From the NCBI GenBank assembly GCA_038874215.1, contig JAVZCV010000001.1, positions 98,427-161,995 on the forward strand: DNA of 63,569 nucleotides, in the 5' to 3' direction. Source of the stretch: Candidatus Micrarchaeia archaeon. GTDB taxonomy: Archaea > Micrarchaeota > Micrarchaeia > Burarchaeales > JAVZCV01. Positions within the stretch are counted from its first letter, which is position 1; each line of letters opens with the position of its first letter. Positions 12,001-15,000 of the stretch are shown here, in pieces. A program made the position numbers.

Positions 12001-15000
12001 TGACTCCCATAGGCATGGGCGGGCCTCTTATAAGACTTGTTGAAAACGGTTTCGTTGATTTCATAATATCAACGGGTGCAAACCTTTACCATGACCTGCA
12101 CCGCGCTTTTGATTACCCTGTCATGCAAGGGAGCGAAAAGGTTGACGATGAAAGACTGTATAGGCAGGGTATTTCTCGCATCTATGATGTTTTTATAGAG
12201 GACGGTGAGACTTTGTTGAATACGGACAAGTGCATTATTGATGCCATAAGAAGCACGCATATTGGCGGAACGGTGTCAACGGCAGAGCTTAACAACACGA
12301 TAGGCAGAAGGGTACTTGCAACAGCGCCCCATCCCGAGAAATCTCTGCTTGCAACATGCGCCAAGCATGATGTGCCCGTGTATACGCCCGCAGCTGGTGA
12401 TTCTTCAATAGGCATGAACATCGTGCTTCCATACATATTCGGGCAGAGGGTTTCAATAGACCCCATTCTGGATATAATAGAAACGACCGCAATAGTGGCG
12501 GCGGCAGAAAAAAACGGTGTTGTGGTGGTGGGTGGCGGCGCACCAAAAAATTTCTACCTTCAGACGCAACCCGTTCTTTGGCAGATATTTATGGATGAAA
12601 GGGGAGGGCACGATTATTTCATACAGCTAACTACTGACTCTCCACAATGGGGTGGCTTGTCTGGCGCAACTCCGCAGGAAGCAAAATCGTGGGGCAAGGT
12701 TAGGAACCCTCACAATAATGCAACCGTAGTGTATTCCTGCGCCTCAATAACCTTCCCAATTCTTGCGCAACATGCCCTCATGCGCAACAAACCACGCACA
12801 ATGAAGAAGCTTTATGCAAAAAGGGGAGAGCTTGTAAGAAGGCTTATCAAAAAGTCCGTAGTGGGGAACAAAAGGTTGATGAGGAGAATAGGTCGTTGGG
12901 CAAAACCAGAGAAGTGTGAGGAGATATTAAGATATTACGAGAAGAAGACGGAAGGAGCATGCTGAGGATGGGGAAGTATTATTTACTTTTATTTTTCTAA
13001 TATATTCGCAGCGGATAGGTCGGGAGGCTAGGGGTCTCCTGTAACCACAAATCCCCTTGCGGTGGGACCGAAAGACCGGTTGCGCTTCTGTCGGGTGCAG
13101 GCACGCTCTGCGTACTGGCGTTGAGGTCTTGCCTCTTGGGACGATGCGCTATGTGAAACGGGTCAGGCCGGAAGGAGCAGCCCTAAGCATAAACGTCATC
13201 TTTCAAAAAAGACGGTGAAATGCATCGTGCTCAGAGCCAACAGGACCGAGCAAAGGCGCAGAAAACGGTCTGTATCCGAAGATGCAAGACCGGAGCCTCC
13301 GCTGCATGCGCTGGGATCGCCTAGCGGTTCAGGCTTTGTAGCTAAAAGCTTGAGCAAAGAACAAAGCTTGCGTTAAAGGGCGGCAGCCTGCTATGTTCCT
13401 TCCTGCGTGGAAAGGAAAAGCAGCAAGCTGTTTGGCCATTCGGCCATCGTGGGTTCGAAAGAGTCGCCCATTCATAAACTGCCTCGTCCGAAAATCCCAC
13501 TCCCAGCGCTTAATTATTTTTTTCTCTTAATATGCAACATCTGCGAGCATGGGCTGACGACTCTGATACATTTAAAATCCTCACACGCATAACGTTATCC
13601 GTCATGCGGGCCCATAGCTTAGCCTGGTTGGAGCGCTCGGCTGATAACCGGGAGGTCGCCGGTTCGAATCCGGCTGGGCCCACTAATTGTAGATTCCTTT
13701 ATATACTTTTTTTACCATAATATTATCTAAAACGATTTGCGGGTTATTGAATGGATGAAAAGAAAAGAGGTAAGGATATTTTTTACAAGGATTTAGAGCG
13801 GGAGATAGAAGGGAGGAATGTTTCGGTAGGGTTTGAAAGAAAAGGGGATAGGCTGATAATAAAGGCTGAGAAGGTTAGGGGGAATGTAGAAAGCATAAAA
13901 CGCGCGATAAAGGAGCAGGTAGAAAAAAGGCGTGGGGACAACGAATTTTTACAGCTTGTTGAAGAAATTGAGAGAGATATATCAAAAATAGAGGGAGAGT
14001 TGCGCATACTTAGAAAAAAACTGGAAGTTTTGCGCTTCGCTGCAGAGGAGTATGTCTCCGAGCCAGCTGCGGGTAGAAGTGAGGGCGAGGATGAGGAACA
14101 AAGTGAGGCAGTTGTGTATGCTGTTGCTACTGGGAAAAAAAAGGAGTTTGAGGCTGGAAGAAATGAAAATAATGGTAATCCGGGGATGCACGCAGTGAAT
14201 TCAAAAAAACAAAGGCCCGAAATTCCGCCCGCACCAGACTACATACCCGTAATAGAGTTTAGTTCTTCTTCTGATGAAGAAAAAGGTGTGAGGGTTGAGT
14301 CTGGCTGGAGAGACCTATATCCCGAGAATACGGTGGCATTCAACACTGATTTCATGATGGGAATAGAGAAAGTAGGTATAGCGGAGGAAAAGAAGGGGGA
14401 GGAGCGAGTCCTTGAGATAAACGAGAGAATAGCAAGGGAGATTGCAAGCATTGCAGAATTCGGAGTGCAGAAGGAGAGCGAATCTCCTTTTGAAGGTTTT
14501 TTTGGAAGCGTCTCTTCTGTTATATCGTCTTTTGTAGCGTACCCTTCAAAGTTTTTGGGTAAGAAGGAGAGCTCCGAGGCTCAGGAGTGGAAAGCCGGCA
14601 TGGAGCCTGTGGGGAGAGAGAGTTATGACGGCAGTTTTGAAAAAGCACAGACAAGCACTGAAACGTATCCTGTAGAAGAATCGTTAGAAAAGCCGATAAC
14701 GATGCCCGAGGCACCCGAATATGTTCCTCAGATAACTGAATTTGACATATTTCGGGGGAAGTATCTTAGCTTGCAGTCAAACAGGGCGCTTACAGTAGAG
14801 GAGATTGCAAGGATTACGGGGGATAACGAAGCGGATGTGAAGGGGTGGCTAACAAGACTTGTAGGTGAAGGGGTTGTAAAAAAAGTAAAAAGAAGAAAGA
14901 AGGGCGCATATGTAGATGCGTATATTATTTTAGAAAAATAGAGGGTTAGGCTCTTTTCGCTATAACATACATCGCATGAGACCATGAAAGCGGAATTACC

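Follow-up and report, generated by a model that had tools for sequence, protein, structure and literature searches.

A tRNA-Ser(GCT) gene with three predicted bulge-helix-bulge introns and the tRNA intron load of a Micrarchaeia archaeon

Does a 199-nt stretch that escapes both aragorn and the Rfam tRNA model hold a working tRNA-Ser(GCT) gene interrupted three times, and how far does the rest of the tRNA set of the same archaeon follow this pattern? The stretch lies in a window of 63,569 nt from Candidatus Micrarchaeia archaeon (contig JAVZCV010000001.1, called C1 here, positions 98,427-161,995), the whole piece of DNA analysed here, to which all coordinates given without a contig name refer. 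The genome-wide survey's note had proposed three introns for this gene and had ended it at 13507.

Layout and intron removal at the tRNA-Ser(GCT) locus

The locus was parsed into four exons and three introns as follows, where BHB is bulge-helix-bulge, H the central helix, and h and h' the outer and inner helices of a strict hBHBh' motif.

13008-13305, forward strand: archaeal SRP (7S) RNA gene, ending 4 nt upstream of the tRNA gene
13310-13508, forward strand: predicted tRNA-Ser(GCT) gene, four exons, three BHB introns, no encoded CCA
13310-13328, forward strand: exon 1, 5' strands of acceptor stem and D-stem, D-loop to position 20 (invariant block in alignment A1; aragorn structure)
13329-13376, forward strand: intron 1, 48 nt, D-loop (about 20/21), strict hBHBh' with H 4/4, h 6, h' 10
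13377-13393, forward strand: exon 2, D-stem 3' strand, anticodon stem 5' strand, loop to A37, anticodon GCT
13394-13425, forward strand: intron 2, 32 nt, canonical 37/38, H 4/4, h 6, h' 0
13426-13459, forward strand: exon 3, anticodon stem 3' strand, long variable arm, T-stem 5' strand, T-loop to position 59
13460-13494, forward strand: intron 3, 35 nt, T-loop 59/60, H 4/4 (TTCG with CGAA), h 5 (T-stem), h' 2
13495-13508, forward strand: exon 4, T60, T-stem 3' strand, acceptor 3' strand, discriminator G
13608-13683, forward strand: tRNA-Ile(GAT), one of the genome's three uninterrupted tRNA genes (aragorn; Rfam 67.2 bits)

The earlier end at 13507 is the last acceptor base, and the gene reaches 13508 once the discriminator G is counted. 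The SRP RNA matches RF01857 with 91.6 bits (E 3.8e-21), slightly below the gathering score, and RF01854 with 64.3 bits, over the cut-off; the order SRP-tRNA-Ser is also found in genomes G001 and G022, and the two genes are possibly co-transcribed.

All three motifs at the locus are of the strict 3-4-3 kind, with a fully paired central helix (4/4), 3-nt bulges and an outer helix 5-6 bp long; in the 59/60 intron the inner helix is weak. Taking out all three introns yields an 84-85-nt tRNA-Ser(gct) with a long variable arm and an aragorn score of 119.5, while none of the other seven subsets of removals yields a tRNA-Ser, and the three-intron structure claimed by the survey is reproduced in this respect. 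The minimum-energy fold of the precursor (-78.8 kcal/mol, z -4.0; none of 200 shuffles folds as well) keeps the acceptor stem and three extended arms, and shows the D-arm and T-arm motifs, the bulges of intron 1 being 3 nt long and 4 bp apart; in the anticodon intron, pairing is shifted by one base relative to the strict BHB.

That three motifs and a cloverleaf should coincide here by chance is a reading to be considered, given how frequent BHB motifs are at random: the genome holds 334,860 strict ones, equally many occur in the reversed control, and a BHB motif on its own is worthless as evidence. Against this, the reversed genome never reached a score of 110, its maxima being 108.7 in 2,333,301 triples, 103.1 in 4,018,210 pairs and 102.9 in 335,549 singles, and among 2,327,497 triple-splice combinations across the real genome the tRNA-Ser(GCT) locus alone scored above 110.1. 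With the orthologues and covariation described below also contrary to it, coincidence is extremely improbable.

Orthologues and competing readings

BLAST matches to the gene came from 10 genomes, counting G000, among the 29 of the order, and an orthologue could be parsed in eight, seven of which entered the eight-sequence alignment A1 (G024 is identical to G022). Invariant columns of A1 fall in exons, and columns 68-84, corresponding to exon 2, are invariant in all eight sequences. The introns themselves vary: the G011 orthologue carries all three at identical junctions with other sequences and lengths, G001 has the 59/60 intron and no D-loop intron, G002 has the 37/38 intron only and is continuous across the D-loop junction, and five g17 genomes have the D-loop intron only, with exons 2 and 3 abutting. 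Intron-less alleles in A1 run straight across the predicted junctions. Across the eight sequences, pairing at the 26 cloverleaf pairs amounts to 98.6%, compared with 37-60% in slid controls, and five of the pairs show compensatory change on both sides. Three features expected of BHB tRNA introns are present here, namely bulge-helix-bulge geometry, a cloverleaf restored on removal, and exons that are conserved while introns vary.

A decaying pseudogene with three insertions that is never processed would likewise be unseen by standard finders, as this locus is. Yet every insertion sits within a strict BHB, the exons are invariant or covarying across families of the order, and G011 uses the same three sites with unrelated intron sequences; the spliced score is moreover comparable to those of intact tRNAs (121.3-123.4 for the three in the genome), and no other Ser(GCT) gene appears in the census, so decay of this locus is very improbable.

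A real gene with one border elsewhere is somewhat less remote, and still unlikely. A 50-nt D-loop intron at 13328-13377 also gives tRNA-Ser(gct), with a score of 115.0, but the BHB is far better for the 48-nt version (h 6, h' 10 versus h 5, h' 0), its score of 119.5 is higher, and the continuous ...GGT AGGG... of G001 is what a 48-nt intron predicts. The 37/38 border could equally be shifted by one base, as in the minimum-energy fold and as the blurring A|A repeats permit; such a shift within A|A leaves the mature sequence unchanged.

The interval 13310-13508 is thus very probably a functional tRNA-Ser(GCT) gene with three protein-spliced introns (D-loop, 37/38 and 59/60), as supported together by the motifs, the restored cloverleaf, the chance controls, the presence and absence of introns among orthologues, covariation, and the enzymes present in the genome.

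Two further interrupted genes lie in the window.

27803-27915, reverse strand: tRNA-Gln(CTG), one 40-nt 59/60 intron at 27817-27856 (strict BHB, h 5, h' 3; aragorn 117.9 spliced)
62002-62239, forward strand: tRNA-Leu(CAA), three introns (aragorn 113.8 spliced)
62025-62085, forward strand: D-loop intron of tRNA-Leu(CAA)
62101-62145, forward strand: 37/38 intron of tRNA-Leu(CAA)
62176-62224, forward strand: 59/60 intron of tRNA-Leu(CAA), whose border can slide one base within an A run

In G007, G024 and G027 the orthologue of tRNA-Leu(CAA) is 86 nt long, has no introns and matches the four exons; in alignment A2, MAFFT misplaced the 5' half of these orthologues, and the 5' junctions were read by eye and from BLAST pieces.

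Splicing enzymes and a possible route

The splicing endonuclease EndA aligns with PDB 4fz2, the EndA of ARMAN-2, in a single stretch (E 1.3e-138, residues 5-385 of 385 on 7-387), and is one polypeptide with three units (alphaN-alpha-betaC), which is the layout of the epsilon2 type. Its catalytic triad Y233/H248/K279 corresponds to Y236/H251/K282 of ARMAN-2, and K158 to the specificity-loop lysine K161 (ASYKAEQR here versus GTYKVSEH); the K161A mutant of the ARMAN-2 enzyme is reported to lose activity. The survey's assignment to the epsilon2 type holds up, and by homology the enzyme would be a broad-specificity homodimer that cuts both strict and relaxed BHB motifs. The two proteins nevertheless differ substantially (465 bits over 381 aligned residues). 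An RtcB ligase is encoded at C11:2606-3910 (587.8 bits).

Based on these components, the locus would be transcribed, possibly jointly with the SRP RNA, whose end lies 4 nt upstream, and the 199-nt precursor would fold into a cloverleaf whose D, anticodon and T arms are each lengthened by an exon-intron helix with two 3-nt bulges 4 bp apart. Homodimeric epsilon2 EndA (C2:35656-36810) would cut both bulges of each motif, RtcB would ligate the four exons, and CCA would be added post-transcriptionally, as it is not encoded in the gene. Transcription, cleavage and ligation, the order of removal and intron mobility are all inferred. For 12900-13800 no RNA run was listed as containing the interval; the three runs listed are all DNA, and one of them contains it.

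Of the 41 class genomes sampled, 38 have an epsilon-type EndA that is full-length and in one piece, and 40 have some match, while Rfam-detectable tRNAs range from 2 to 44 across these genomes. Since the enzyme is near-general and tRNA counts are so variable, a permissive endonuclease makes room for a heavy intron load without determining it.

Intron load across the tRNA set and its counterparts

Aragorn reports 5 tRNA genes at default settings and 16 under -i; of the 24 matches to the Rfam tRNA model at E<=10, 15 lie over its cut-off. This reproduces the survey's numbers and bears out its statement that these genes are hidden, for aragorn and the Rfam model as the finders run here. The anticodon calls of aragorn -i are unreliable in this genome: it labels Thr(TGT) at C17 'Ser tga', Gln(TTG) at C6 'Stop tta', Arg(CCG) at C1:68719 'Gly ccc' and Thr(CGT) at C13 'Ser cga', and its 'Cys gca' at C3, with a 436-nt intron, has no tRNA-like appearance. 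'Leu caa' at C1:55276, previously left as Leu or Ala, reads as Ala(CGC) with G3:U70, and the gene at C29:3125, 'Leu gag' to aragorn and with some doubt to the survey, is parsed as Ser(TGA), its intron lying at 30/31.

A census of the whole genome (38 contigs), whose gene and intron counts are the output of our own scripts, comprises 42 tRNA genes, 39 of them (~93%) interrupted by ~73 introns (~1.7 per gene). These lie at 37/38 (28), at 59/60 (19), in the D-loop (11), at 53/54 (8) and elsewhere (7), so that 59/60, already singled out as a hot spot, leads the non-canonical sites. Three introns occur in ten or eleven genes, in keeping with the maximum proposed earlier, and Gly(TCC) at C14:2527-2747 is again among them; a fourth intron in Glu(CTC) was rejected, as its D-arm is continuous, which leaves three. 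Near-universal interruption was thus correctly seen by the survey, and its counts (18 of 20 genes, 30 introns) were too low. Phe, which it had listed as missing, is present on contig C4, from which three genes of the census are given here.

C4:38183-38356: Phe(GAA) gene (own census)
C4:38431-38617: Gly(GCC) gene, complete
C4:39764-39914: Gly(CCC) gene, complete

The last two account for BLAST pieces 1.3 kb apart that had been considered a split tRNA: each piece is a complete gene, and neither separated halves nor halves in reversed order, as in a split or permuted tRNA gene, are found there. No gene for Cys, Arg(GCG), Arg(TCT) or Ser(CGA) was returned by any pipeline run on the genome, of which 9% is unassembled.

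It is conceivable, and in our view improbable to a lesser degree than the alternatives for the single locus, that the locus is read correctly while the genome-wide claim (39 of 42 genes, ~73 introns) is swollen by genes that permissive scripts have wrongly called or parsed. When the filters on span, intron number and length class are lifted, the control of the relaxed pipeline rises to 118.5; the top aragorn score under relaxed BHB rules is often a wrong parse (for example 'Tyr' at C17 and 'Leu caa' at C14:7081), for which reason filters and hand reading are needed; and five genes (Ala CGC, Ser TGA, Ser GGA, Thr GGT and Leu TAA) come from unconstrained deletions and a hand parse without a control. 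On the other hand, with the filters in place 32 locus groups score >=110 in the real genome and none in the control (maximum 109.2), and the strict tier alone already has 15 of 18 genes interrupted. The 42 genes cover 19 of the 20 amino acids, with initiator and elongator Met as the sole duplicate anticodon, and with only three intact tRNAs a working set requires interrupted genes. Judged from these parses, the tRNA set as a whole appears to consist of about 39 interrupted genes among 42, with about 73 introns, to which the same splicing scheme applies.

The phenomenon of multi-intron tRNA genes is known, and its degree here is at or above the published maximum. In the passages of PMC3239211 (Fujishima et al. 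2011) and PMC3488258 (Hirata et al. 2012) that deal with ARMAN-2 (Candidatus Micrarchaeum acidiphilum), a three-unit EndA of ~385 aa with a specificity-loop lysine is likewise described, as are 59/60 introns and tRNAs missed by default finders. ARMAN-2 pre-tRNA-Pro GGG has a double T-loop intron (53/54 plus 59/60), an arrangement also seen here, and both genomes have tRNA-Ile(UAU) instead of Ile(CAU), the parses of Pro(GGG) and Ile(TAT) in the present genome being uncertain. Comparing totals, 56% of 43 genes are disrupted in ARMAN-2, versus ~93% of 42 here, 10-11 of them with three introns. Thermoproteales, in the parts of PMC4033280 and PMC8450103 that cite Sugahara 2008, similarly have genes with as many as three BHB introns, non-canonical D- and T-arm sites, and neighbouring introns of which one can form its BHB only once the other has been removed, a situation shared with the present genome; they belong to another phylum and use an (alpha-beta)2 endonuclease, whereas the present organism is a DPANN archaeon with an epsilon2 enzyme. 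The maximum quoted in these two sources is 71 introns in 46 genes for P. calidifontis, with a Thermoproteales mean of 0.84 per gene, against ~73 in 42 (1.7 per gene) here if the census holds. For Micrarchaeota other than ARMAN-1 and -2, no literature on tRNA-intron load was found, and none of the 40 relatives sampled belongs to the family of this genome.

The survey had also mentioned a repeated intron element. It is indeed present: one hairpin element recurs in the introns of seven tRNA genes, at differing positions, and in the 23S rRNA gene within a BHB-flanked 59-nt insertion, and a second intron cargo is found in sister genomes as a repeat dispersed outside tRNA genes, with copies in G004 and G014. 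The common form of the 59/60 introns, GGTTCRA|...GAAA|TCC, is not proof of common descent, because it is mostly dictated by base-pairing, T54-T55-C56-R57 having to pair with YGAA in the central helix. Similar intron sequences in unrelated tRNA genes and positions have a published precedent, whose pattern is the same here, with the difference that the element also resides in 23S rRNA and the second cargo in a dispersed repeat. The recurrence of the hairpin element suggests intron mobility, and part at least of the load might stem from small hairpin-bearing introns spreading between tRNA positions and into 23S rRNA. It is a tentative proposal, and one we hold with less than even confidence, that this lineage bears the densest tRNA-intron load recorded for any genome, fed by mobile hairpin mini-introns that pass between D-loop, 37/38 and T-loop sites of different tRNAs and into 23S rRNA, and that occur in sister genomes as dispersed repeats.

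For annotation, default tools display 5-16 of ~42 tRNA genes, and such genomes then seem unable to decode most codons; Rfam tRNA hits number 17 or fewer in 14 of the 28 same-order genomes sampled, and tRNAscan-SE 2.0, as presented in the part of PMC8450103 used here, includes a routine for non-canonical archaeal introns. Each intron of Ser(GCT) and Leu(CAA) is present in some families and absent from others, and their setting, with cargo common to rRNA and dispersed repeats, offers material for tests of gain and loss. If the proposal of a load fed by mobile introns is true, the order would be a natural system in which to watch BHB introns being gained and lost.

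A tRNA-Ser(GCT) gene with three introns

In the genome studied (1.13 Mb in 38 contigs, 91% complete), the stretch at positions 13310-13508 of the window, which spans C1:98427-161995, yielded no tRNA call with aragorn, whether run with default settings or with -i, or with Rfam, even at E<=10. The stretch was scanned for strict 3-4-3 bulge-helix-bulge (BHB) splice motifs, and from the resulting candidate introns the three with long outer helices were chosen (h, outer helix; h', inner helix).

Features at the tRNA-Ser(GCT) locus (window positions)
13008-13305: archaeal SRP (7S) RNA, 5' neighbour (Rfam)
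13329-13376: intron 1, D-loop (about 20/21), 48 nt, strict BHB, h 6, h' 10
13394-13425: intron 2, 37/38, 32 nt, strict BHB, h 6
13460-13494: intron 3, 59/60, 35 nt, strict BHB, h 5, h' 2
13608-13683: intact tRNA-Ile(GAT), 3' neighbour (aragorn, Rfam)

Removing all three introns produced an 85-nt tRNA-Ser(gct) with a long variable arm and an aragorn score of 119.5, compared with 121.3-123.4 for the genome's three intact tRNAs, and none of the seven other intron subsets gave a tRNA-Ser in aragorn. The gene sequence carries no CCA. The predicted minimum-energy fold of the 199-nt precursor (-78.8 kcal/mol, z -4.0, equalled by none of 200 shuffles) consists of the acceptor stem and three extended arms: in the D-arm and the T-arm, 4 bp separate the two 3-nt bulges of the motif, and the register in the anticodon arm is one base off the strict motif.

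BLAST matches to the locus were found in 10 of the 29 genomes of the order, this one included, and the orthologous gene was readable in eight relatives, seven of which were aligned (G024 being identical to G022). All three junctions are also used in G011, whose introns there measure 32, 143, and about 107 nt and are unrelated in sequence; the D-loop intron is missing from G001, the sole intron in G002 is that at 37/38, and the sole intron in G022, G024, G026, G027, and G028 is that in the D-loop. In the intron-lacking alleles the sequence is continuous across each predicted junction, and the exons are the invariant columns of the alignment. The 26 cloverleaf pairs were paired in 98.6% of cells, with two-sided changes in five pairs, as against 37-60% when the structure was slid by one to three columns. 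Rfam detected one of five orthologous loci scanned, namely the single-intron gene of G002 (41.4 bits). The second three-intron gene of the window, tRNA-Leu(CAA) at 62002-62239, followed the same pattern: intronless 86-nt orthologues in G007, G024, and G027 match all four of its exons.

The SRP RNA ends 4 nt upstream of tRNA-Ser(GCT), and the same order occurs in G001 (gap 5 nt) and G022 (gap 44 nt; regions window 13008-13310, L003:727-995, and L004:1106-1406), while no over-cut-off SRP match lies beside the gene in G011, G002, or G027. From this arrangement it seems possible that the two RNAs are co-transcribed and that SRP RNA is freed by tRNA processing; a 7S RNA-tRNA-Ser linkage was reportedly described in a methanogen some time ago. 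Window positions 13291-13338 also form a strict BHB-like pairing (central helix 4/4, outer helix 8 bp) between the 3' end of the SRP RNA and the 5' part of the tRNA with intron 1. This pairing, whose nominal 'intron' is 13305-13329, may reflect chance or a processing signal.

Chance controls and the genome-wide census

The same pipelines were run on the reversed genome as a control. Strict BHB motifs (h>=3) were as frequent there (335,549) as in the genome itself (334,860), and a BHB motif by itself is no evidence for an intron; the discriminating feature is the motif combined with a restored cloverleaf.

tRNA hits from single, paired, and triple candidate introns
Singles, genome: 28 hits in 334,860; 12 at >=117.8
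Singles, reversed: 1 hit in 335,549, score 102.9
Pairs, genome: 82 hits
Pairs, reversed: 21 hits in 4,018,210; maximum 103.1
Triples, genome: 49 hits in 2,327,497; tRNA-Ser(GCT) 119.5, next locus 110.1
Triples, reversed: 14 hits in 2,333,301; maximum 108.7

tRNA genes were then counted in three tiers with my own scripts. Tier 1 required strict BHB motifs and an aragorn score of at least 117 (control maximum 108.7), with Thr(TGT), whose central helix is paired at 3/4, also placed here. Of its 18 genes, three are intronless (Ile GAT, Leu CAG, Ala GGC) and the other 15 together carry 20 introns (13 at 37/38, six at 59/60, one in the D-loop). Each anchor for Tier 2 combined a T-arm, whose loop could hold 0-2 introns, with U8 and an acceptor stem of 7 bp (883 anchors in the genome vs 1,313 in the control, the latter giving 1,060,191 combinations), and to each a solver added 0-2 internal relaxed-BHB introns. 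Unfiltered control scores reached 118.5; after filtering for a span of <=260 nt, <=3 introns, and a length class fitting the isotype, 32 locus groups scored >=110 in the genome vs none in the control (maximum 109.2). This added 19 genes and 47 introns, with a few uncertain parses.

Tier 2 genes by number of introns
Three: Glu CTC, Glu TTC, Gly GCC, Gly TCC, Ile TAT, Leu CAA, Leu TAG, Lys TTT, Val GAC
Two or three, parse uncertain: Pro GGG
Two: Gly CCC, Phe GAA, Pro CGG, Pro TGG, Arg TCG, Val TAC, second Met CAT, Leu GAG
One: Trp CCA

Tier 3, based on unconstrained deletions and hand parsing without a control, added five genes and six introns with uncertain parses (Ala CGC, Ser TGA, Ser GGA, Thr GGT, Leu TAA). 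By these scripts the 91% complete genome thus holds 42 tRNA genes, 39 of them interrupted by about 73 introns; the highest number per gene is three, reached in 10 or 11 genes.

Introns by site
37/38: 28
59/60: 19
D-loop: 11
53/54: 8
56/57: 3
30/31: 2
54/55: 1
32/33: 1, doubtful

tRNAs for Cys, Arg GCG, Arg TCT, and Ser CGA were not found by the census of this 91% complete assembly. For Pro(GGG) (C6:30036-30195), a clean D-arm/anticodon-arm parse was not obtained; two bases lie between the stems, and a 32/33 intron is possible. Three interrupted genes, Phe(GAA), Gly(GCC), and Gly(CCC), lie within 1.7 kb at C4:38183-39914.

The heavy interruption described in the genome-wide survey's note was borne out, including its two named three-intron genes, tRNA-Ser(GCT) and tRNA-Gly(TCC), while its count of 20 genes, 18 interrupted, and 30 introns proved a conservative underestimate. 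Its tool counts (aragorn, five by default and 16 with introns; Rfam, 15 over the cut-off) were identical on rerun, and four calls it had flagged as uncertain now resolve to Ala CGC, Ser TGA, Ile TAT, and Trp CCA. The form it saw shared by 59/60 introns is accounted for mostly by the pairing of T54-R57 with YGAA ahead of an A-rich bulge.

Elements shared between introns

A hairpin element of about 33-40 nt, in copies 92-97% identical, occurs in introns of seven tRNA genes and also inside a 59-nt BHB-flanked insertion in 23S rRNA (C14:4054-4112). Both rRNA matches (minus strand, L014) exceed their models, 23S (C14:3563-6811) with 3,249 nt vs 2,987 positions and 16S (C14:7164-9272) with 2,109 nt vs 1,478, and both genes therefore contain inserted sequence, about 260 nt in 23S and about 630 nt in 16S. 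A second element, a roughly 35-nt hairpin, lies in the 59/60 intron of Leu(CAA) (62176-62224).

Locations of the two elements
First element, D-loop introns: Gly TCC, Gly GCC, Glu TTC, Leu CAA
First element, 37/38 introns: Ala TGC, Leu CAA, Pro CGG, Trp CCA
Second element, G001 (L041): 59/60 intron
Second element, G015 (L042): 37/38 intron of Glu(CTC)
Second element, G004 and G014 (L028-L040): dispersed, non-tRNA; 11 read in G004 of 15 BLAST hits, two read in G014

The G004 copies sit within a longer repeat, several of them at contig ends in a non-tRNA context. These shared elements are consistent with introns being gained by transposition, a route that has been proposed for Thermoproteales; mobility itself is inferred. 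The introns at 56/57 in Phe(GAA), Leu(GAG) (C6:28414), and Ser(GGA) (C6:26068; 170 nt) resemble one another at both ends, which suggests a second intron family.

Four Gly/Glu genes (C14:2527-2747, C2:75577-75780, C1:68865-69042, C4:39764-39914) carry introns at both 53/54 and 59/60. Here the T-stem serves as outer helix for the 59/60 BHB and becomes contiguous only once the 53/54 intron, whose 3' end (…GGGAA) mimics the T-stem, is removed; as read from these sequences, the arrangement would thus imply a splicing order or a nested structure.

Splicing enzymes and known systems

The genome encodes the ligase RtcB (C11:2606-3910) and a 385-aa tRNA splicing endonuclease (EndA, C2:35656-36810) whose entire length aligns with ARMAN-2 EndA; the match to PDB 4fz2 noted in the survey (E=1.3e-138) was reproduced exactly. 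The catalytic Tyr/His/Lys and the ARMAN-specific-loop lysine are both conserved, the latter being essential in ARMAN-2 EndA for cutting strict and relaxed motifs, according to Hirata et al. (PMC3488258). A full-length, undivided epsilon-type EndA was present in 38 of 41 class genomes sampled; in two it was in two pieces, and in one that is 77% complete it was not found. Rfam tRNA hits across the sampled class genomes ranged from 2 to 44, with <=17 in 14 of the 28 same-order genomes. With EndA near-universal and hit numbers this variable, the enzyme therefore permits the intron load without setting it.

Fujishima 2011 (PMC3239211) describes for ARMAN-2 a 59/60 intron, a 53/54 and 59/60 double T-loop intron, tRNA-Ile(UAU), epsilon2 EndA, and 43 tRNA genes of which 56% are disrupted, in contrast to 39 of 42 here. 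Three introns are the per-gene maximum in review literature (PMC4033280), and the record quoted there (PMC8450103) is 71 introns in 46 genes of P. calidifontis, with a Thermoproteales mean of 0.84 per gene, compared with about 73 in 42 by my own scripts. Given these precedents in ARMAN-2 and Thermoproteales, each qualitative feature of the tRNA introns in this genome is therefore already described. A literature search, whose scope did not extend to possibly relevant supplements, returned no account of how heavily introns load the tRNA genes of Micrarchaeota other than ARMAN-1/-2. The genome stands alone in its family among 40 relatives sampled, and what is new is a further lineage, an intron load that equals or exceeds the published maximum, and an intron cargo common to tRNA and rRNA.
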